A stretch of 7,076 nucleotides of DNA from a virus (Duplodnaviria > Heunggongvirae > Uroviricota > Caudoviricetes), in IMG/VR virus record IMGVR_UViG_2667528155_000012. One strand, 5' to 3'. Below, one piece after another: positions 1 to 7,076 of this stretch. The translations under genes were made by a program, and so were the position numbers. The notes under the pieces are model-generated. The model was not told the origin of the DNA. It did no database searches and saw nothing but the letters and a program-made list of their open reading frames with translations. Position 1 is the first letter of the stretch. Every line of letters begins with the position of its first letter.

Positions 1-417
1 GTAAAGTTCTGAAGCATCTCTTGGGGTTTCATGTGGATGCCGAGTATAACCAAGTATTTGTGGTATTAAATTACCATGCGATTGAACTACAGATTCATAT
101 TTCTTATAGCAAGCATTATCAAAAAATCTCATTCTTATGCTAAGTTCTCTGAGTTTGTCAACGTCTAGAGAAACTTGTTTGTTGGCAATAATTAAATCTC
201 CGCGGTTTAATGTATTCTTGTGTTGAAAAATCAGTAAAAGCCATTCTGTATTATTGTAAAGCTTTTCAAGATTGGCATGTATATCAAGTCCGAGTTTTTC
301 ATATGCGGATAATTTGACCTCTTTTTCCTTTGCAGAAAGAGAAGATGAATAAGCCAGTAATCCGCTTATTATGGCAACAATAAATGTTCCTATAATGGTT
401 AAGGTATTCGAGTCCAT
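1..417 (-). CDS. Hypothetical membrane-anchored protein, N-terminal 139 codons only (C-terminus beyond the window edge); AT-rich moron-like gene
   Basis: ATG at 417..415 on the minus strand, open to position 1 with no stop (not in the ORF track because it runs off the edge). Translation begins MDSNTLTIIGTFIVAIISGLLAYSSS..., i.e. one N-terminal hydrophobic helix then a hydrophilic domain. Composition is much more AT-rich than the adjacent lysis genes. I recognise no family. Confidence 0.5.
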   Translation of the reverse strand, partial: MDSNTLTIIGTFIVAIISGLLAYSSSLSAKEKEVKLSAYEKLGLDIHANLEKLYNNTEWLLLIFQHKNTLNRGDLIIANKQVSLDVDKLRELSIRMRFFDNACYKKYESVVQSHGNLIPQILGYTRHPHETPRDASELY

Positions 418-445
418 TGTATTCTTCAAAAGTTGGTCAAAAATA

Positions 446-474
446 TATTGTAATATTTTAATGTATAAAATCAA
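446..474 (-). promoter_or_regulatory. Candidate sigma70-type promoter for the 1..417 minus-strand gene
   Basis: On the minus strand: TTGATT (plus 474..469), 17-nt spacer, TACAAT (plus 451..446), about 30 nt upstream of the ATG at 417. Pattern match only. Confidence 0.25.
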
Positions 475-524
475 TCATTTCCCCTCATTCTGAGAGGACT
501 CACAGCAACAAAGAGGGGGGCTAA

Positions 525-911
525 ATGTCCGATCCGATTTCCGGTTCTGGGATGGCTGGTGGTGTCCTGACGGGGGCCAGCGTCTATGGATTTCTATCCG
601 GAACCGATTACGGCGTGGTGTTTGGCGCATTTGCCGGGGCTGTATTTTACATTGCAACCGCAGCGGATCTAAGTGCAGCGCGCCGACTGGCATATTTTCT
701 GGTGTCGTATATCGCGGGGATCCTTTGTTCCGGGCTGGTGGGTTCAAAGCTGGCTCAGGCTACCGGCTACAGTGATAAACCACTGGATGCCATTGGCGCC
801 GTAATCGTTTCTGCTTTAGCCGTCAAAATCCTGACATTCCTGAATAATCAGGATGTCGGCTCGCTGGTGGCGCTGATAACGCGCCGGGGAGGTTCAGGTG
901 GTACAAAATGA
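525..911 (+). CDS. Putative holin (128 aa, multi-TM, charged C-terminal tail)
   Basis: ATG at 525 preceded by SD AGAGGGGGG with a 5-nt spacer. Several hydrophobic helices (GVVFGAFAGAVFYIA, LAYFLVSYIAGILCSGLVG, AIGAVIVSALAVKILTFL) and a basic C-terminal tail (ITRRGGSGGTK). First gene of a translationally coupled operon ending in endolysin and spanins. Confidence 0.7.
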   Translation: MSDPISGSGMAGGVLTGASVYGFLSGTDYGVVFGAFAGAVFYIATAADLSAARRLAYFLVSYIAGILCSGLVGSKLAQATGYSDKPLDAIGAVIVSALAVKILTFLNNQDVGSLVALITRRGGSGGTK

Positions 912-1179
912 CCCATCGGCAACTTTTAATGCATTGCTTTGTGCTGGGGTAGTGTTAACCCTGATGTTTTACCGTCGCGGCGACTCGCGACATCGACCGT
1001 GGATATCTCGCTTAGCGTGGCTGCTTACGGTCATCTACAGCGCCGTTCCGCTGGCGTATCTGTGCGGTATTTACCCGTACTCATCATGGGCCACTATCGG
1101 GGCCAACTTTATTTTCCTGTCCGTGCTGGTCGCCGTAAGAGGCAACGTGGCACGTCTGGTTGATCATCTGAGGCACTAA
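898..1179 (+). CDS. Second small membrane protein of the lysis cassette (holin partner or antiholin-like), 93 aa, GTG start
   Basis: GTG at 898 preceded by GGGGAGG (886-892) with a 5-nt spacer. Overlaps the holin stop (909-911), and its TAA overlaps the endolysin ATG (taATG at 1177-1181). Hydrophobic segments FNALLCAGVVLTLMFY, LAWLLTVIYSAVPLAYLCGIY, IGANFIFLSVLVAV. Function inferred from position and topology only. Confidence 0.55.
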   Translation: MVQNDPSATFNALLCAGVVLTLMFYRRGDSRHRPWISRLAWLLTVIYSAVPLAYLCGIYPYSSWATIGANFIFLSVLVAVRGNVARLVDHLRH

Positions 1180-1793
1180 TGAACCAATCACAATTTCAGC
1201 AGGCGGCTGGTATCAGCGCCGGGCTTTCTGCGCGCTGGTTTCCGCACATTGACGCGGCAATGAAAGAGTTTGGCATTACAGCTACGAACGATCTGGCTAT
1301 GTTCATCGCCCAGGTTGGGCATGAGTCTGCTGGCTTTACCTCGCTGGTGGAAAGCTTCAACTACTCGGTAGAGGGGCTGAAGAAAACCTTTGGTAAACGG
1401 CTTACTCCTTATCAGTGTGAAATGCTGGGTCGTGTCGATGGTAAGCAGGTGGCCCACCAGCCGCAAATAGCCAATCTGGTTTATGGTGACCGCATGGGGA
1501 ATAACAGCCAGGGTGACGGCTGGAAATATCGCGGTCGCGGCCTGCTGCAAATCACGGGTCGTGAGAACTACACCAAATGCGGCACGGCGCTGAAACTTGA
1601 CCTTATCAGTACGCCAGAATTGCTAACGCAAGAGCGACATGCGGCTCGTTCGGCTGCGTGGTACTTCACGTTACGCGGTTGCCTGATGTATTCGGGTGAC
1701 GTGGCACGCGTTACGCAGATTATTAACGGCGGACAGAACGGCATTAAAGACCGCCGTGAACGTTACGCCAAAGCTAAAGCTGCACTGGTGTGA
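1179..1793 (+). CDS. Phage endolysin, glycoside hydrolase family 19 (chitinase-like lysozyme), 204 aa
   Basis: Translation contains KEFGITATNDLAMFIAQVGHESAGFTSLVE, the hallmark region of GH19-type phage endolysins with the catalytic Glu in HES, plus downstream GWKYRGRGLLQITGRENY. SD GAGG 5 nt upstream; sits between holin genes and spanins. Confidence 0.9.
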   Translation: MNQSQFQQAAGISAGLSARWFPHIDAAMKEFGITATNDLAMFIAQVGHESAGFTSLVESFNYSVEGLKKTFGKRLTPYQCEMLGRVDGKQVAHQPQIANLVYGDRMGNNSQGDGWKYRGRGLLQITGRENYTKCGTALKLDLISTPELLTQERHAARSAAWYFTLRGCLMYSGDVARVTQIINGGQNGIKDRRERYAKAKAALV

Positions 1794-1800
1794 GGTCAGT

Positions 1801-2070
1801 ATGGGGCTTGAAATGATTATCGGCCTGGTTGTTGCTGTGCTGGCTGCAATTGCAGGTGCTTTTGGGCTGGGCAAATCACGCGGTACCAGTATCGCTGAAA
1901 CAAAAGCGGACCAACAACGCACTGAAGAACGTGCAATAGCTATTGAAGCGGTTGCAGAACGCCGGGTAGAAACAACAAAAGGAGCCAGGGATGTACAACA
2001 GACTGTTAACCATATGCCTGATGACGCTGCTGATCGCGAGCTGCGCAAAAACTGGACACGTAAGGATTGA
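1801..2070 (+). CDS. Inner-membrane spanin subunit (Rz-like i-spanin), about 89 aa
   Basis: ATG at 1801 with GAGG upstream, 8 nt after the endolysin stop. N-terminal TM helix MGLEMIIGLVVAVLAAIAGAFGL followed by a charged, helical periplasmic domain. The ORF-track start at 1696 lies inside the endolysin gene and is rejected. Unusually short for an Rz protein. Confidence 0.7.
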   Translation: MGLEMIIGLVVAVLAAIAGAFGLGKSRGTSIAETKADQQRTEERAIAIEAVAERRVETTKGARDVQQTVNHMPDDAADRELRKNWTRKD

Positions 2071-2212
2071 GGTTATTGACACCGGCTGCGATTGGGTAAA
2101 ACCCATCTACGGCACTGCTCATGATTGGGAAGTGCTGGACAGGCAGACCAAGAAAGACATTCTTATGCATAACAAAGTGTGGATGTCAAACTGTGGCTCT
2201 ATAACTTATTGA
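1991..2212 (+). CDS. Outer-membrane spanin subunit (Rz1-like lipoprotein o-spanin), 73 aa
   Basis: ATG at 1991 with GGAG 6 nt upstream. Lipoprotein signal MYNRLLTICLMTLLIASC with lipobox IASC. Starts in a different frame inside the 3' end of the i-spanin gene and extends beyond it, the classic overlapped spanin architecture. Confidence 0.7.
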   Translation: MYNRLLTICLMTLLIASCAKTGHVRIEVIDTGCDWVKPIYGTAHDWEVLDRQTKKDILMHNKVWMSNCGSITY

Positions 2213-2862
2213 TTTTGTTTTTTGTTGTCTACCATATCAGGCAATGTGAAGGCATATAGAAGAAATACTTCGGTGAAACCAATCATTTCTTGAGCATCTT
2301 CTTTTGAAAATTCTTCATCAGAATGAACTGCTCCATTGGAATCGATTCGAACTATATGTGCCCATTCCCTCATTTGATCTGTAATCAGTCCCTTAGCATG
2401 CAACATAGAAATCCGTTTAACCAATTTTTCATCTTTTGAGTCATTTCCCAGTAACTCCCGTGTAGCAATGTCCAAGACTTTACGGCAAAGCATAACGGAT
2501 GTGTCGAAACGACAGCGCCCTAAGTTGTCTTTTGCTTCTATGAAAGCCATAGCAGCACGTGGCGGAGTGTGTTCGGGGGCGTTAAGGAGGGTGGGTTTCG
2601 GGATGATATCAATCAACTGGTACTCAGTATTTCCAGGAATGATTACGTTTACATCATTATTTTGCCTAGATTTTGCACGAGGTAAATAACCACCGGGATT
2701 ATTCATTTTTACAATAGCAATACCTGATTGAAAACAGCTTCGACAACAAAATGCAATATTAACTAAAGGCCCGGCGTTGATACGCAGTTCTGCCCATCCT
2801 TCAAGGACAGCATTTTCCCTCAGACAATGTGGGCAAGTGATATCGAAAGTGAGAATTCCCAT
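2206..2862 (-). CDS. Zinc-ribbon protein with a C-terminal DUF4145/HEPN-like domain (218 aa); candidate defence or abortive-infection effector
   Basis: ATG at 2862..2860 with GGAG 7 nt upstream on the minus strand; the ORF-track TTG start at 2907 is less likely. N-terminus has CPHC ... CCRSC (Cys-x2-Cys ... Cys-Cys-x2-Cys), typical of a zinc ribbon. C-terminus (VMLCRKVLDIATRELLG ... LITDQMREWAHIVRIDSNGAVH ... EDAQEMIGFTEVFLLYAFTLP) matches my recollection of the DUF4145 pattern with an R-x7-H motif. AT-rich, convergent with the spanin gene. Confidence 0.7.
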   Translation of the reverse strand: MGILTFDITCPHCLRENAVLEGWAELRINAGPLVNIAFCCRSCFQSGIAIVKMNNPGGYLPRAKSRQNNDVNVIIPGNTEYQLIDIIPKPTLLNAPEHTPPRAAMAFIEAKDNLGRCRFDTSVMLCRKVLDIATRELLGNDSKDEKLVKRISMLHAKGLITDQMREWAHIVRIDSNGAVHSDEEFSKEDAQEMIGFTEVFLLYAFTLPDMVDNKKQNQ

Positions 2863-3046
2863 GACTCTACTCCATACATTAAAAGAAATTGAAAATGAAT
2901 TACACAATGCACAACGACCTGAGTCTACACTCCTTCAACGATATGAAGTATCGAATGAGATTAAAAAAAAGGAGTTTGTAGTCGCTTTGATCGGTAAACT
3001 GATAGAATTGGACCGCCGTCTCTATGTCACATCATTGAAGCCTTAG
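2861..3046 (+). CDS. Hypothetical small protein (61 aa), divergent from the zinc-ribbon gene; uncertain
   Basis: ATG at 2861 reads MTLLHTLKEIENELHNAQRPESTLLQRYEVSNEIKKKEFVVALIGKLIELDRRLYVTSLKP, a predicted helical peptide. Only a weak SD (GTGAG), and the same DNA must also carry the promoter of the minus-strand gene, so coding status is doubtful. Confidence 0.25.
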   Translation: MTLLHTLKEIENELHNAQRPESTLLQRYEVSNEIKKKEFVVALIGKLIELDRRLYVTSLKP

Positions 3047-3415
3047 TTTCAATTTTACCGATTTATCGCTTAAGGGGTAGGACTTCAACACTACTAAGTG
3101 AGCATTGCAGCAGGCATTCAGGGGAATGCTGTGACAGTAGTTAGCTAGGGTAAACCGTTTGCGCCTGGGGATTTTACTTTGCGACGGAAAATTAAAAAAC
3201 TATATGATTTCTTATCCCACTAGGATGTCTGCGGACTACTACTGACTGTTTAGGCTATTACGAGGGGCTCAAACTCAACGTCTGGCATCAACGCAGAACT
3301 GAAAAAGTCGCCATGAATGTGGTTACGGTATTTGGTGGGATATAAACGTACCTTCATTTCTAAGCTTGATAATCACCTTTGTCCGAATTGCCTACGCGAT
3401 AGTCATGTAGTTTTA

Positions 3416-3445
3416 GTCATAACCGTTTACCCTATTGATGTCAAG
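3416..3445 (-). promoter_or_regulatory. Candidate minus-strand sigma70-like promoter inside the ORF-poor gap
   Basis: Minus strand: perfect -35 TTGACA (plus 3445..3440), 18-nt spacer, -10 TATGAC (plus 3421..3416). It would drive leftward transcription across 3409..3047 towards the zinc-ribbon gene. Pattern match only. Confidence 0.25.
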
Positions 3446-3542
3446 ATAAATTGGATAACACTGATGAATCGAACCTCTAAATCCTTTGATGGGCCACTCA
3501 TAGCTGACTGGTTCAAAAAAGTGTTATCAATGGTATGATAAG

Positions 3543-3572
3543 TTGAGATGAAAGGTGTAAATGAACTATAAT
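3543..3572 (+). promoter_or_regulatory. Candidate sigma70 promoter of the AT-rich two-gene operon
   Basis: TTGAGA (3543-3548), 18-nt spacer, consensus TATAAT (3567-3572), about 35 nt upstream of the ATG at 3608. Confidence 0.3.
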
Positions 3573-3607
3573 AATTCAACAGTTAATCTGAGAAAAATGG
3601 ATTATGT

Positions 3608-3877
3608 ATGTCGAATGTAAAAAAAATAGATGCTATAGTTCAAAATTTATTTGAATTCAGAGATGCTACAGGTGAACTTACGGATAAAAATATTGTTTTA
3701 ATACAAAAAATCATAACGAACTTACCTGACTATGCTGGTAAGGATCCATATGAATTTTATTCATCATTTTCTGAAGATATTAATGAGTCGCTCAAAGCAA
3801 TTGCCAATTATCATAAGGCACATGCTAAATACATTAATGCCCTCGATAAATTAGCAGAGCTTAGGTCGGAGGGGTAA
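3608..3877 (+). CDS. Hypothetical small acidic helical protein (89 aa), first gene of a two-gene accessory operon
   Basis: ATG at 3608, TAA at 3875-3877. Very AT-rich coding sequence; translation MSNVKKIDAIVQNLFEFRDATGELTDKNIVLIQKIITNLPDYAGKDPYEFY... has no TM segment and no motif I recognise. Its 3' end carries the SD of the next gene. Confidence 0.6.
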   Translation: MSNVKKIDAIVQNLFEFRDATGELTDKNIVLIQKIITNLPDYAGKDPYEFYSSFSEDINESLKAIANYHKAHAKYINALDKLAELRSEG

Positions 3878-3879
3878 TA

Positions 3880-4257
3880 ATGGCTACGGAAGATATTCAG
3901 GCTTTGTTATCTAAAGTTAATGCGTTAAGATTTGAAGATAAAAGAATAGAGAAGGAAACAGGAGAGATTGAAAATGAAATTCAGGCTCAATTTCTTCGTG
4001 ATGGTAAAACAAGGAGTACATTAACCATAACATTTATGAGAGGCTTTTTTGGTCTTATCGTTTTTTCTTTTATATTTGTGATAGTTTATAACTATTGCGC
4101 AGTGCAATGGGTACTTCAATTACAAAGCAAAGGGCTCATGGAGGCTTCTAAAAGTATCGCACTACTTGAGTTAGATAAGGTGTTATCTATTATGGTTAGT
4201 GCGTTAGGAACATCTCTTGGGTTTATAATTGGCTATTATTTTAAAGACAAAAAATAA
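3880..4257 (+). CDS. Hypothetical membrane protein (125 aa): N-terminal coiled-coil-like region plus two C-terminal TM helices; second gene of the operon
   Basis: ATG at 3880 with GGAGG (3868-3872) and a 7-nt spacer, 2 nt after the upstream stop. Charged N-terminal ~50 aa, then FFGLIVFSFIFVIVYNYCAVQWVL and LSIMVSALGTSLGFIIGYYF hydrophobic helices. Followed by a strong intrinsic terminator. Confidence 0.65.
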   Translation: MATEDIQALLSKVNALRFEDKRIEKETGEIENEIQAQFLRDGKTRSTLTITFMRGFFGLIVFSFIFVIVYNYCAVQWVLQLQSKGLMEASKSIALLELDKVLSIMVSALGTSLGFIIGYYFKDKK

Positions 4258-4330
4258 ATAATTTAATTTTACATTGCTATTTATGTTTTGCTTTTAAGAT
4301 TTTTAACTTTCTAGATGTAGAGTTATTGTT

Positions 4331-4360
4331 AAAGCACTGGTATTTGCCAGTGCTTTTTTA
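4331..4360 (+). terminator. Rho-independent terminator of the two-gene operon
   Basis: Perfect 8-bp stem AGCACTGG (4333-4340) / CCAGTGCT (4347-4354), loop TATTTG, then TTTTTTATT. Lies 76 nt after the stop at 4257. Confidence 0.6.
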
Positions 4361-4364
4361 TTAA

Positions 4365-4376
4365 AATCCGCGGATT
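4365..4376. repeat. Perfect 12-bp palindrome AATCCGCGGATT right after the terminator
   Basis: Read directly: aatccgcggatt is its own reverse complement. Possible dimeric protein-binding site; function unknown. Confidence 0.4.
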
Positions 4377-4764
4377 AATGACGGCAATCATGAATACTCC
4401 TCCAAAGACTGATCCAACGATACGGGTGTATAAGTCACACTTGTTTAATCTGTGATTGATGGCACTATAATTTATGTTGCACAACATAAACTGCCGATGG
4501 AGGGAATTGAGTGCTGAGCATGTCAGACATAAGTGTGTTGTCGAAGGTCTCCTCAGGCATGGTTTCTGCATAACGTCGACACTTGAAAGCCTCCATAATG
4601 ACAATAAAGTATAAGTATTATCATTATTAATTGTCACTTGCCGTTGCGACATGCTTGGGCGGCGACCGCCTAAGTTCTCTTTATAAATGAGAAGTTCCCG
4701 CTAGCGACCGTTTCTGATTCCTTTTTTTCTACTAAGTTTGTATCAAATAAACAGGATAATGCCG

Positions 4765-5127
4765 ATGCCAGCACGAGCAAAGCGTCCATGCCGGCACAAG
4801 GGCTGTGCGGCAGTTACCAACGATGCCAGTGGCTATTGTGATCAACACCGACAGCGGCATGCTGGTGATGGCTGGCGTAACTACCAGGCAGGAAAGAGCA
4901 GGCAGGAACGTGGATATGGGCGGACCTGGGAAATTAAACGGGTGCGTATCCTTCAGCGTGATAAGTACCTGTGTCAGAACCATCGCCGGCAGAAGATTGC
5001 AAAAAAGGCGACCAGCGTTGACCACATCATTCCAAAAGCTCATGGCGGTACTGATGACGATTTCAATCTTGAGTCGTTGTGCTGGGACTGCCACAGAGCG
5101 AAGACGGCAAGAGAGCGTATCCGATGA
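4765..5127 (+). CDS. Phage-associated HNH endonuclease (about 121 aa from ATG 4765)
   Basis: C-terminal HNH signature DHIIPKAHGGTDDDFNLESLCWDCH and an N-terminal Cys/His cluster (CRHKGC ... CDQH). AGGA (4753-4756) is 8 nt upstream of ATG 4765; alternative starts are ATG 4759 and TTG 4738. An HNH gene just upstream of terS is typical of HK97-like cos phages. Confidence 0.85.
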   Translation: MPARAKRPCRHKGCAAVTNDASGYCDQHRQRHAGDGWRNYQAGKSRQERGYGRTWEIKRVRILQRDKYLCQNHRRQKIAKKATSVDHIIPKAHGGTDDDFNLESLCWDCHRAKTARERIR

Positions 5128-5461
5128 GTTAGACCCATTGCACATATTTTGGTTCACGGCTCTATACAATAGCTAACTGCCCAAAATAATGGGGTGGTTC
5201 ATCGCGCCGCGCCAACCTGCACTGCAGCTATTGTGGGCAGTCAGGGCATAACTCTAGTGCCTGTCCACATAATGAGAGCTGCGGTCGTCGGCGCAGCCTG
5301 AATGATGACTTCCATCTTGATTGATGCCCACACAGGCCAGGGGAAGGGGGGATCAAATCCCTGACCCCTTTCGCCTTCCAGGACTGCCGCCTGAAGGACA
5401 TTTTTGCACGTCATAAATAAGGATCTTTTTTCCGGTAGGTTTCACCTATTAAAGAGGAGTT
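5128..5461. other. Candidate cos / packaging-initiation region between HNH and the small terminase
   Basis: 334-bp non-coding gap at the position where HK97-like phages carry cos. Contains a GC-rich purine run with an imperfect hairpin (about 5341-5368) and a second stem-loop at 5374-5397. The cleavage site itself cannot be determined from sequence. Confidence 0.3.
5374..5405 (+). terminator. Terminator-like stem-loop plus T-run upstream of terS (possible terminator, attenuator or terminase-binding structure)
   Basis: CCTTC(C)AGG (5374-5382) pairs with CCTGAAGG (5390-5397) with a 1-nt bulge and a 7-nt loop, followed by ACATTTTT (5398-5405). Confidence 0.3.
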
Positions 5462-5896
5462 ATGGCTGGTGGAATTCGATCGTCTGGAGGGGGGAGAAAA
5501 CCCATCTTACCCGCCGGACAAAAAAGTAAATTAACCCGAATTGCACCTCCTGCAGAGTTAATGGGGGAGGCTGCAATAAGACTGTGGAAAACCCAAAGTA
5601 AAATTCTGATCGAAAGAGGCGTGTTTGAACTGGAGGATGCGCCCCTGCTTGTGGCTTACTGCAATGCCTTCCATTTAATGCTTGAAGCTGAAAAATTGCT
5701 CTCGTCAAGCCTGACGACCGAAAGTGAAATGGGGGGATTAAAGAAACATCCCGCCGTTAACATCAGAAATGATTCAGTTTCCCAGATAGCCCGTCTTGGT
5801 TCGCTTCTGGGGTTGGATCCGCTCAGCCGAATTCGGATGCGTGGCGGTGGAAATGATCCTGACGACGACGGGAATGAATTTGATGAGTTTGACTGA
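5462..5896 (+). CDS. terS: Terminase small subunit, P27 family (144 aa)
   Basis: ATG at 5462 after AAGAGGAG. Translation has the family's characteristic N-terminal GGGRKP motif, a central LVAYCNAFHLMLEAEK, a C-terminal LGLDPLSRIRMRGG and an acidic tail. Its stop overlaps the next start (tgATGg). Confidence 0.85.
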   Translation: MAGGIRSSGGGRKPILPAGQKSKLTRIAPPAELMGEAAIRLWKTQSKILIERGVFELEDAPLLVAYCNAFHLMLEAEKLLSSSLTTESEMGGLKKHPAVNIRNDSVSQIARLGSLLGLDPLSRIRMRGGGNDPDDDGNEFDEFD

Positions 5897-7076
5897 TGGC
5901 TACATATCCGAACGTCAATGCAGCGAACCAGTATGCAAGAGATGTTGTTGGCGGGAAGATCCTTGCTTGTCAGTTAACTGTGCTTGCCTGTCAAAGACAC
6001 CTTGATGATTTGGAACGTGCGAAGGATCCTGCCTGGCCTTACCGGTTTGATAAAAACAAGGCCGAGCGATTTTTGCGCTTTGCTCAGAAGATGCCTCATA
6101 CGGCCGGTGAATGGGCCAGGAAGAAACTACGAATAGAATTTGAGCCCTGGCAAAAGTTTGCCCTTGGTGTGCCATTTGGATGGGTTAATAAGAAGTCCGG
6201 ATTCCGGCGTTTTTCTGAAATATATATTGAGGTGCCCAGGAAAAATGGGAAATCCGCAATTGCAGCTGCCGTTGGTAATTATATGTTTTGCGCCGATGGT
6301 GAACATGGTGCAGAAGTGTACTGTGGCGCCACTACTGAAAAACAAGCCTGGAAAGTCTTCTCTCCCGCTCTACAAATGGTAAAAAAACTCCCGGCATTGC
6401 GACAAAAATACTCAGTCAAACCCTGGGCGAAGAAAATGACCCGTCCGGATGGCTCTGTTTTTGCGCCAGTCATCGGCGATCCTGGTGACGGCGATTCCCC
6501 TTCATGTGCAATTATTGATGAATATCACGAGCATCAGACTGATGCACTTTATACAACGATGACTACCGGGATGGGGGCAAGGGAGCAGCCTGTTACTCTG
6601 ATTATTACTACAGCGGGTTATGACATTACTTCGCCCTGTTACGAGAAGCGTGTGCAGATAGTGGAAATTCTCCGCCGTAACCGGACAGGAGAAGAAAACG
6701 AGACAATATTTGGCATTATATACGGTCTGGATGACGATGATGACTGGACCAGGCCCGAAGCGCTGATTAAAGCAAATCCCAACTTTGGTGTTTCTGTTAA
6801 AGAGCATTTTCTTCGGGCGAAGCAGTTACTGGGAATATCCAATCCCAGCCAGACTAACAAAATTCTGACCAAGCACTTTAACCGGTGGGTAAGTGCAAAA
6901 ACGGTTTTTTATGACCTGCAAAGATGGATGGCTGCTGCGGATAAAAACCTTAAATTATCTGCTGAAGGAAGTCTCAACGCTGAATACAGAATTTCTAATC
7001 TGGATGCAGATTTATCTTCACCGGACGCAGACTTGTCTATGATGTCGCGTCATACTATTTTTCAACACGTTGAAAT
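5896..7076 (+). CDS. terL: Terminase large subunit, N-terminal ~393 codons (continues past the window end)
   Basis: ATG at 5896 overlapping the terS stop; frame open to 7076, and no ORF-track entry exists because no stop is reached. Walker A-like VPRKNGKS and Walker B-like CAIIDEYHEH are present, consistent with the terminase ATPase domain. Confidence 0.9.
   Translation, partial: MATYPNVNAANQYARDVVGGKILACQLTVLACQRHLDDLERAKDPAWPYRFDKNKAERFLRFAQKMPHTAGEWARKKLRIEFEPWQKFALGVPFGWVNKKSGFRRFSEIYIEVPRKNGKSAIAAAVGNYMFCADGEHGAEVYCGATTEKQAWKVFSPALQMVKKLPALRQKYSVKPWAKKMTRPDGSVFAPVIGDPGDGDSPSCAIIDEYHEHQTDALYTTMTTGMGAREQPVTLIITTAGYDITSPCYEKRVQIVEILRRNRTGEENETIFGIIYGLDDDDDWTRPEALIKANPNFGVSVKEHFLRAKQLLGISNPSQTNKILTKHFNRWVSAKTVFYDLQRWMAAADKNLKLSAEGSLNAEYRISNLDADLSSPDADLSMMSRHTIFQHVE

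Follow-up and report, generated by a model that had tools for sequence, protein, structure and literature searches.

A predicted RAZR-like zinc-ribbon HEPN RNase gene and its small head-to-head partner at the lysis-to-packaging junction of a lambdoid prophage

What is the role of an AT-rich gene which lies antisense to the late operon, between the lysis and packaging genes of a temperate phage? This question is raised by a 7,076 nt stretch of the IMG/VR virus record IMGVR_UViG_2667528155_000012 (Caudoviricetes), referred to below in its full length as the window, in which a gene at positions 2206-2862 on the minus strand encodes a protein with an N-terminal zinc ribbon and a C-terminal HEPN domain of the DUF4145 type (ZF-HEPN protein). 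An initial annotation, made from the sequence alone, had suggested that this gene may be a single-gene defence or toxin effector. Our analysis points to a lysogen-expressed, prophage-borne abortive-infection RNase resembling RAZR, which may be modulated by the product of a small gene on the phage strand, and we assign this reading as a whole a probability of roughly 0.6. The strongest part of it, in our view very probable, is that the ZF-HEPN protein belongs to the RAZR superfamily and serves as an RNase effector against phages. The features on which the argument depends are the following.

2206-2862, minus strand: ZF-HEPN gene, 657 nt, 218 aa plus stop (stop codon 2206-2208; open reading frame list and Pfam DUF4145)
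2704-2862, minus strand: Cys4 zinc ribbon, residues 1-53, putative sensor domain with ligands C10, C13, C40 and C43
2563-2703, minus strand: residues 54-100, comprising a clade-specific hypervariable insert (54-83) and a Pro-rich linker (84-100)
2209-2562, minus strand: five-helix HEPN (DUF4145) domain, residues 101-218, with helices over 101-217 in the AlphaFold2 model
2323-2349, minus strand: predicted composite RNase active-site motif R172-I-D-S-N176-G-A-V-H180 (R-x3-N-x3-H)
2870-2873, minus strand: Shine-Dalgarno sequence GGAG of the ZF-HEPN gene, within codons 3-4 of the small gene (read from the sequence)
2899-2927, minus strand: weak candidate sigma-70 promoter of the ZF-HEPN gene, TAGACT-17 nt-TGTAAT, read manually within the small gene
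2861-3046, plus strand: small partner gene, 61 aa, phrog_8371 (function unknown), co-directional with the late operon
2170-3010, no strand assigned: mobile cassette block, from sliding identity against loci L004-L007

The closest characterised relative of the ZF-HEPN protein was found to be RAZR. This protein was first recovered in a functional screen as PD-T7-4, a 'Zn finger-HEPN' single-gene system (PMC9519451), and was renamed ring-activated zinc-finger RNase by Zhang et al. (Nature 2026, PMC13017515). RAZR from E. coli UMB1727 (RRL46918.1, structures PDB 9Y9C/9Y6U) consists of a Cys4 zinc-finger domain (ZFD) followed by a DUF4145/HEPN domain, assembles into a 24-mer on rings of phage origin (T7-type portals and SECphi27 Gp77), cleaves single-stranded RNA nonspecifically and acts by abortive infection. 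Defence is abolished by R146A and by H154A, mutation also stops RNA cleavage, and the ZFD sets specificity and is the most variable part of the protein (PMC13017515). For comparison, the 219-aa RAZR sequence was rebuilt by joining two fragments from databases, P0307 supplying the N-terminus and P0285 the C-terminus, and the numbering of the rebuilt sequence fits all residues named in the paper (R29, Y31, R35, T41, E43, AGN68-70, R146 and H154).

Searches were carried out with the single sequence and with two profiles, A1 for the narrow family and A2 for a broad alignment of distant relatives with the window protein as its first row. The A2 profile retrieved 9y9c chain OA (RAZR, 219 aa, 24 chains) from the PDB at E 2.9e-7 with both ribbon and HEPN domain matched, and neither the single sequence nor the narrow profile retrieved RAZR from PDB sequences. 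Direct BLASTP of the window protein against RAZR gave 28% identity over 151 residues (E 3e-4), pairing HIVRIDSNGAVH with DICRIVGNQAVH of RAZR. When A2 was aligned with the RAZR family by hhalign the probability was 98.4% (E 7.4e-15) over 172 columns, from the first CPHC knuckle through the last helix. Since this alignment spans both domains, we regard the window protein as a genuine, distant, full-length homologue of RAZR, as judged by profile comparison. The ribbon aligns with RAZR residues 13-54. BLASTP, hhalign and the PDB profile search all place R172, N176 and H180 opposite RAZR R146, N150 and H154, so that the RIDSNGAVH segment, which the initial annotation had singled out as reminiscent of an RNase active site, matches the essential R146 and H154 of RAZR with the same spacing and is a likely active site here also. 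The Pro-rich IIPxP...AP.h.P segment (P88, P96, P100), a putative counterpart of the RAZR linker (residues 66-79, packed on the HEPN domain), was aligned by hhalign with RAZR IIPAAGNVELPNPDMP and was aligned differently by BLASTP. Given the match to the RAZR catalytic residues together with the profile-profile homology, the defence-effector reading of the gene is well founded, and the earlier prediction of a defence or toxin effector gains a precedent in RAZR/PD-T7-4, a validated abortive-infection RNase (PMC13017515, PMC9519451). The protein class has already been characterised (RAZR, 2026), hence this is no new kind of system.

The domain assignments were supported by a family search and a structure model. 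A Pfam search of the translation matched DUF4145 (PF13643) over residues 120-198 with E 7e-11 and a score of 42.5 bits (curated cut-off 23.1), which bears out the assignment made in the initial annotation. The AlphaFold2 model (mean predicted local distance difference test score, pLDDT, 85) places the C-terminal helical domain within the HEPN fold. Within the HEPN superfamily (Pfam clan KNTase_C) the helical core is present, and the motif is the divergent R-x7-H, not the canonical R-x4-6-H; this spacing is typical of DUF4145 and RAZR, and on the alignments the motif is better written R-x3-N-x3-H. The protein thus falls within the DUF4145 HEPN family, for which the survey of Anantharaman et al. 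(2013) listed zinc-ribbon fusions and occurrence in double-stranded DNA viruses (PMC3710099); that survey gave no function, prophage-slot analysis or partner gene. At the N-terminus the model contains ribbon strands at residues 4-6, 20-27, 33-40 and 46-53 (pLDDT ~90), and the ribbon gave marginal profile matches to Rpb9/RPA12/TFIIS ribbons including 1qyp, the ribbon on which the RAZR authors superposed their structure (PMC13017515). The cysteine cluster reads C10-P-H-C13 ... C39-C40-R-S-C43; as had been noticed from the sequence this is a real cluster, with C10, C13, C40 and C43 unchanged in all of 35 close relatives and 106 distant ones, and C39 of the CCRSC segment is not conserved. The insert contains a helix at 61-66 and strands at 73-75 and 81-87 in the same model, and of the linker prolines P88 is invariant across 106 sequences.

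Conservation is distributed very unevenly along the protein. R172, N176 and H180 are invariant in the close relatives and at least 90% conserved in the distant ones, R127 is invariant or at least 90% conserved across these two sets, and the R/N/H triad persists over 2,700 or more clusters. Segment F196-P208 forms an invariant hydrophobic helix (FTEVFL.Y.FTLP). Column entropy was 1.56 bits in the ribbon, 2.53 in the insert and 0.79 in the HEPN domain, with median identities to the window protein of 51%, 23% and 69%, respectively. A word-indexed search returned 146 homologues, and the family comprises 2,718 representative clusters (50% identity) at E<=1e-3, of which 139 reach E<=1e-30, numbers which put the observation far beyond chance. 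Most of the best 150 clusters are ~205-230 aa long and have the same two domains. The window protein itself is an exact match to WP_044690700.1, entered for Citrobacter braakii and E. coli, and is matched over its full length by phrog_1305 (E 3e-42).

The open reading frame of 218 codons is real as originally described. The mechanical list gave a longer version with a TTG start at 2907 (233 aa); however, a GGAG Shine-Dalgarno sequence is found at 2873-2870 and all 34 of the 34 aligned homologues begin at the position of ATG 2862, with the N-terminus M-[GAS]-[ILMV], so the sequence evidence identifies this ATG as the true start.

Alignment of the DNA upstream of the ZF-HEPN genes revealed conservation that proved to be coding sequence on the other strand, namely the small gene at 2861-3046, whose product is MTLLHTLKEIENELHNAQRPESTLLQRYEVSNEIKKKEFVVALIGKLIELDRRLYVTSLKP. 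Both ATG codons lie in the tetramer CATG at 2860-2863, with 2 nt in common, and the ribosome-binding site of each gene falls within the first codons of the other. Variability by codon position (0.49/0.38/0.65), the match to phrog_8371 (at E 8e-6 with the window protein itself and at 5.5e-56 with its Shiga toxin (Stx) phage homologue) and the taxa and contigs that its clusters have in common with those of the RNase all identify the partner, by these sequence signatures, as a real translated gene. Its AlphaFold2 model has three helices at residues 2-16, 20-30 and 33-59 (pLDDT 92). Two motifs, DRPEFTL.QRYE and ALIGKLIE.DR, are common to the homologues, in which I10, R19, P20, E21 and L24 are invariant. 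Searches of Pfam, NCBIfam and PADLOC with the partner gave no useful match.

The partner falls into 67 clusters, which share taxa and often contigs with the RNase clusters, and the same head-to-head arrangement occurs in 10 or more genera and in both of the prophage slots described below. It was found at the same position in Stx phages (annotated hypothetical gp20) and in Enterobacter, Tatumella, Symbiopectobacterium, Rosenbergiella, Yersinia, Providencia, Gilliamella and the betaproteobacterium Alcaligenes. The Klebsiella version (66 aa) is present on 277 contigs, and the pair also occurs on one metagenome contig whose RNase is 34% identical to that of the window. The description of the locus as single-gene cargo was therefore probably wrong, because the head-to-head gene is conserved in the clade and the pair moves as a cassette.

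In the window clade the gene is always housed in a lambdoid prophage, on the strand opposite to the flanking operon, and occupies one of two accessory slots. The slot between spanin and terminase genes is used in the window, in 98%-identical copies beside lambda-type Nu1/gpA terminases, in Klebsiella prophages and in Klebsiella phage 2b. The slot between replication genes and ninB is used in Stx phages 75/02 and POCJ13 and in Yersinia and Providencia prophages. Sliding identity showed that the block at ~2170-3010 is 92-100% identical to lambdoid prophages with Nu1/gpA terminases, with flanks of ~50-70% and lower identity further out, which shows a discrete AT-rich block swapped between different lambdoid prophages. 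The cassette is also found beside Nu1/gpA terminases (L004-L006), which ties it to the lysis genes rather than to those for packaging. In the window the ZF-HEPN gene has a GC content of 0.41, below that of both the lysis genes (0.51-0.55) and the HNH endonuclease gene (0.53). It is antisense, with the spanin pair on one side and the HNH/TerS/TerL packaging genes on the other, so that its description as an AT-rich, opposite-strand gene in a moron slot was accurate. In lambda, the gene at this slot is bor. The lambda bor and lom morons and the rexAB and sieB exclusion genes are likewise AT-rich and autonomous, lie antisense between phage modules and are presumably expressed in the lysogen; their proteins are unrelated to those described here.

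On the basis of these observations we propose the following mechanism. In the lysogen a promoter of its own, directed against the phage operon, would drive the RNase gene, and the protein would rest as an inactive oligomer. Upon superinfection the hypervariable face of the zinc ribbon would bind a protein of the incoming phage, by analogy with RAZR probably a large ring such as the portal, and the ring-bound geometry would place pairs of HEPN domains in an active arrangement; cleavage of single-stranded RNA (mRNA, tRNA and rRNA) would then halt translation and abort the infection. For ring-templated activation in particular, which is argued by analogy, we would put the chances at slightly below even. 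The small gene is read in the direction of the late transcript, or of the early-right transcript where the other slot is occupied. It would therefore be expressed once the resident prophage turns lytic, and the lytic read-through transcript would be antisense to the RNase gene. The junction could in this way act as a strand-switch module, with the small protein as a modulator of the RNase whose simplest task would be to hold it back while the prophage itself develops. A modulatory role of this kind (prophage self-immunity or counter-defence) is favoured over that of an essential antitoxin because several lineages retain the RNase but have no partner, and because RAZR and the prophage RNase HepS are harmless until triggered. 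That the partner is specifically an inhibitor expressed in the lytic cycle is a tentative proposal which we think rather less than likely. We are slightly more doubtful still of the fullest version of the module, in which the induced transcript silences the RNase by antisense and delivers a small protein that binds the RNase or its ribbon sensor and so blocks activation by the portal or rings of the prophage's own making.

HepS is the 'HEPN solo' abortive-infection protein of prophage Gifsy-1 (PDB 9OIK), a tetrameric anticodon nuclease which is constitutively present in an inactive form and is triggered by a structural (tail-tip) protein of the invading phage, and it is housed in the replication-nin slot (PMC13043305). 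It shares with the window protein small size, an HEPN RNase domain and a lambdoid-prophage accessory slot (replication-antirepressor/nin region; PMC13043305), and it presents the resident prophage with the same self-targeting problem. As the family of the window protein, HepS was rejected on fold score and motif (R100-x4-H105 with no other domain).

A number of results weigh against our reading and have to be set beside those above. With the narrow A1 profile, hhalign gave just 79% over 94 columns of the HEPN core, and the PADLOC model for PD-T7-4 (PDLC04109) matched the window protein only over residues 102-216, with E 0.0023 and 15.5 bits; at E<=0.001 the window protein is unmatched by this model while 51 of the 106 relatives match it (best E 1.8e-11). 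The window protein also differs from RAZR in carrying a hypervariable insert of ~26-30 aa between ribbon and Pro-rich linker and in lacking the C-terminal helix-loop-helix (RAZR residues 180-219), and because of these two differences ring assembly may not apply here. RAZR V21, D179, D180 and R184 are needed for higher-order assembly and dimer-dimer contacts (PMC13017515); in the window protein R15, L202, Y203 and L207 stand in their place, so that these RAZR residues are not conserved, and L202, Y203 and L207 fall inside the invariant hydrophobic segment F196-P208. Nor was a convincing promoter for lysogenic expression found, either by consensus scan or by comparison with distant loci. Given the head-to-head geometry, any promoter of the ZF-HEPN gene must lie within the small gene; the consensus scan found no minus-strand promoter upstream of the ZF-HEPN gene and did not report the manual candidate at 2927-2899, which is not clearly conserved in distant loci. 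As for the partner, a fold search with it returned nothing informative, neither the 212-aa Klebsiella/Citrobacter/Enterobacter clade nor one distant chromosomal relative has it, and it is present without the RNase in E. coli Stx-like prophages. Absence from some RNase clades and presence without the RNase elsewhere together mean that the partner is not obligatory for the RNase.

The same facts bear on the other explanations of the locus. An effector that worked differently from RAZR would use its distinct ribbon face and its insert to sense something else, such as a protein that forms no ring, a nucleic acid or damage to the host. It would be active as a dimer or tetramer and would cut specific RNA, for example tRNA anticodon loops in the manner of HepS. 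The unconserved oligomer-interface residues, the insert after the ZFD and the missing C-terminal tail all fit such a protein, for which there are precedents in HepS, a tetrameric prophage anticodon nuclease triggered by tail-tip proteins, and in DS-38, a protein combining HEPN and zinc fingers that is thought to be mechanistically distinct from PD-T7-4. Against this, homology to RAZR extends over the full length including ribbon and linker, the hypervariable ZFD follows the same pattern as in RAZR, and the invariant hydrophobic helix F196-P208 could supply an alternative oligomer interface; we therefore judge this explanation unlikely, if the most credible of the alternatives. DS-38 itself (DefensePredictor HEP2, WP_001313577.1) is a validated E. 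coli defence protein with HEPN and zinc fingers (PMC13092281). It was rejected as the true family, being 366 aa long with the reverse domain order, an N-terminal HEPN domain with an R-x4-H motif (RNRVVH) and several C-terminal zinc fingers.

An addiction pair, in which the HEPN RNase is a constitutively dangerous toxin and the three-helix protein its antitoxin and the main role is stabilisation of the prophage rather than phage sensing, appears still less probable. The two genes are divergent and not co-transcribed and so would be expressed under opposite regimes, and the RNase is kept without a partner in the 212-aa Klebsiella clade, at locus L044 and in RAZR itself. Furthermore, the partner has lost its start codon in L007 and is truncated in L004-6 with the RNase gene intact in every case, which is hard to square with an essential antitoxin. 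A HEPN-MNT toxin-antitoxin system in particular was rejected, as no MNT nucleotidyltransferase gene adjoins the RNase in any of the contexts tabulated. A regulatory role, with a zinc-ribbon transcription or RNA-binding factor joined to non-catalytic HEPN-like helices (cf. MtlR/YggD), would agree with the label 'DNA-binding protein' which PHROG 1305 and RefSeq attach to the Stx-phage homologues. Such names are untested transfers, however, and R172, N176 and H180, conserved in 2,700 or more clusters, match residues essential for RAZR defence and RNA cleavage, leaving this explanation very improbable.

The prophage-borne, RAZR-like RNase that we favour has likenesses to RAZR and differences from it. 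Both proteins have the N-terminal Cys4 ribbon and the C-terminal DUF4145/HEPN domain, with a putatively equivalent Pro-rich linker between them, in nearly the same length (218 vs 219 aa), both are carried by mobile elements, and in both the N-terminal region is far more variable than the HEPN domain. Identity is only about 21-28%. RAZR-family genes are co-directional with and just downstream of an integrase gene, whereas those of the window clade are antisense within lambdoid prophages, and the window clade has the small head-to-head partner while RAZR is a stand-alone single gene; no partner homologue was found near the RAZR-family gene at the one RAZR-family locus examined. What sets the present clade apart is thus its prophage-internal position, its different sensor face and a conserved head-to-head partner undescribed for RAZR.

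RAZR is the first bacterial immune RNase shown to be switched on by assembly around a large phage ring, and studies so far have covered the E. coli protein and one 78%-identical Klebsiella homologue only. The Enterobacterales loci examined here are prophage-borne, including those of Stx phages and of Klebsiella, Yersinia, Proteus, Providencia and Citrobacter prophages. A large family with a different hypervariable sensor face would widen the set of triggers and would test how general ring-templated activation is, and the PD-T7-4 defence model of PADLOC does not call the window clade. If the partner holds the RNase in check while its own prophage is in the lytic cycle, this would explain how phage propagation is compatible with carriage of a suicide nuclease that responds to virion proteins, and the partner could be a ready-made inhibitor of RAZR-like defence with relevance to phage therapy against these pathogens. 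Should the strand-switch module hold, it would be an encoded answer to self-targeting, unlike the trigger evasion of the HepS type, and the orphan small genes of E. coli Stx-like prophages would represent counter-defence against RAZR-like systems.

These orphan genes (loci L040-L043, 3001-3258) encode an 85-aa homologue of the partner, P0426, which is present on 170 contigs and lies in the replication-nin slot beside a RelE/HTH toxin-antitoxin pair (HTH, helix-turn-helix). No trace of a ZF-HEPN gene was detected in L040-L043 by tblastn.

The window as a whole is the lysis-to-packaging junction of a lambdoid prophage with HK97-type packaging. Its remaining features are listed below.

525-911 and 898-1179: two holins (lysis genes of the window)
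1179-1793: GH19 endolysin
~1801-2070: i-spanin Rz
1991-2212, plus strand: o-spanin Rz1, lipobox LIASC (phrog_1275, E 1.8e-28)
2200-4740: AT-rich stretch
3543-3572, plus strand: near-consensus promoter TTGAGA-18-TATAAT (11/12), ahead of two tandem open reading frames
3608-3877, plus strand: cargo open reading frame, 89 aa, phrog_21707
3880-4257, plus strand: cargo open reading frame, 125 aa, hydrophobic central segment, phrog_20796 (E 4.5e-49)
4331-4356: terminator-like hairpin after the two tandem frames
4738-5127: HNH endonuclease
5462-5896: P27-family TerS, followed by the start of TerL (packaging genes 5462-7076)

The position of an HNH endonuclease directly upstream of a P27-family TerS and TerL is typical of HK97-like cos packaging. 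The mechanical open reading frame for the i-spanin begins at GTG 1696, inside the endolysin gene, and its PHROG match starts only at residue 36, so the true start is probably ATG ~1801, just past the endolysin stop at 1793. Rz1 and the ZF-HEPN gene converge, and the 3' end of the former overlaps the stop region of the latter by 7 nt. Positions 1-6961 of the window are 100% identical to contigs of public sequencing runs and positions 479-5388 are 96% identical to C. braakii GCA_015942485.1. Megablast of positions 2000-4750 against complete E. coli genomes gave no match, despite near-identical proteins being entered for E. coli and Citrobacter, and scans of the window with Rfam and for tRNA genes were likewise without matches.

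A second cargo on the plus strand at 3543-4356 is more AT-rich (GC 0.32) than the ZF-HEPN gene. Its two tandem open reading frames gave no useful match in Pfam, NCBIfam or PADLOC and, being absent from L004-L007, go with the HNH/TerS module and not with the ZF-HEPN cassette; this cargo could be another moron or an exclusion system. Between the small partner and this cargo lies ~560 bp (3047-3607, GC 0.39) with no convincing gene and no Rfam match, which is conserved only in near-identical prophages (L008-L011, L009).

Several other loci of the survey carry further genes of interest. In the Klebsiella loci L035 and L038 a gene at 777-1070 encodes an Acb2/Tad1-hairpin protein (anti-CBASS/Thoeris sponge family) ~1.3 kb from the ZF-HEPN cassette; the ZF-HEPN gene starts at 3002 in the same post-lysis accessory region, so that defence and counter-defence genes occupy one post-lysis hotspot in these prophages. 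A BstA_C-domain protein (BstA abortive-infection family) adjoins a cI-like repressor at 10490-11410 in the Yersinia loci L029-L031, giving these ZF-HEPN prophages at least two defence candidates. On the C. braakii chromosome beside the prophage of L009 (18764-20657), a gene that begins ~8 kb from the ZF-HEPN gene encodes a protein of 1,051 aa in which Metallophos and nSTAND NTPase domains are combined, and is a candidate antiviral defence gene of the STAND type. Nearly all database entries of the RAZR family (P0270-P0389) are annotated as 146-166 aa proteins beginning at the internal Met63 and thus without the ribbon, probably because the 5' end of the gene overlaps the upstream integrase gene. 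Annotation pipelines in this way systematically hide the sensor domain of the RAZR family. At one RAZR-family locus (L047, 3760-4474) the upstream frame is broken by stops.

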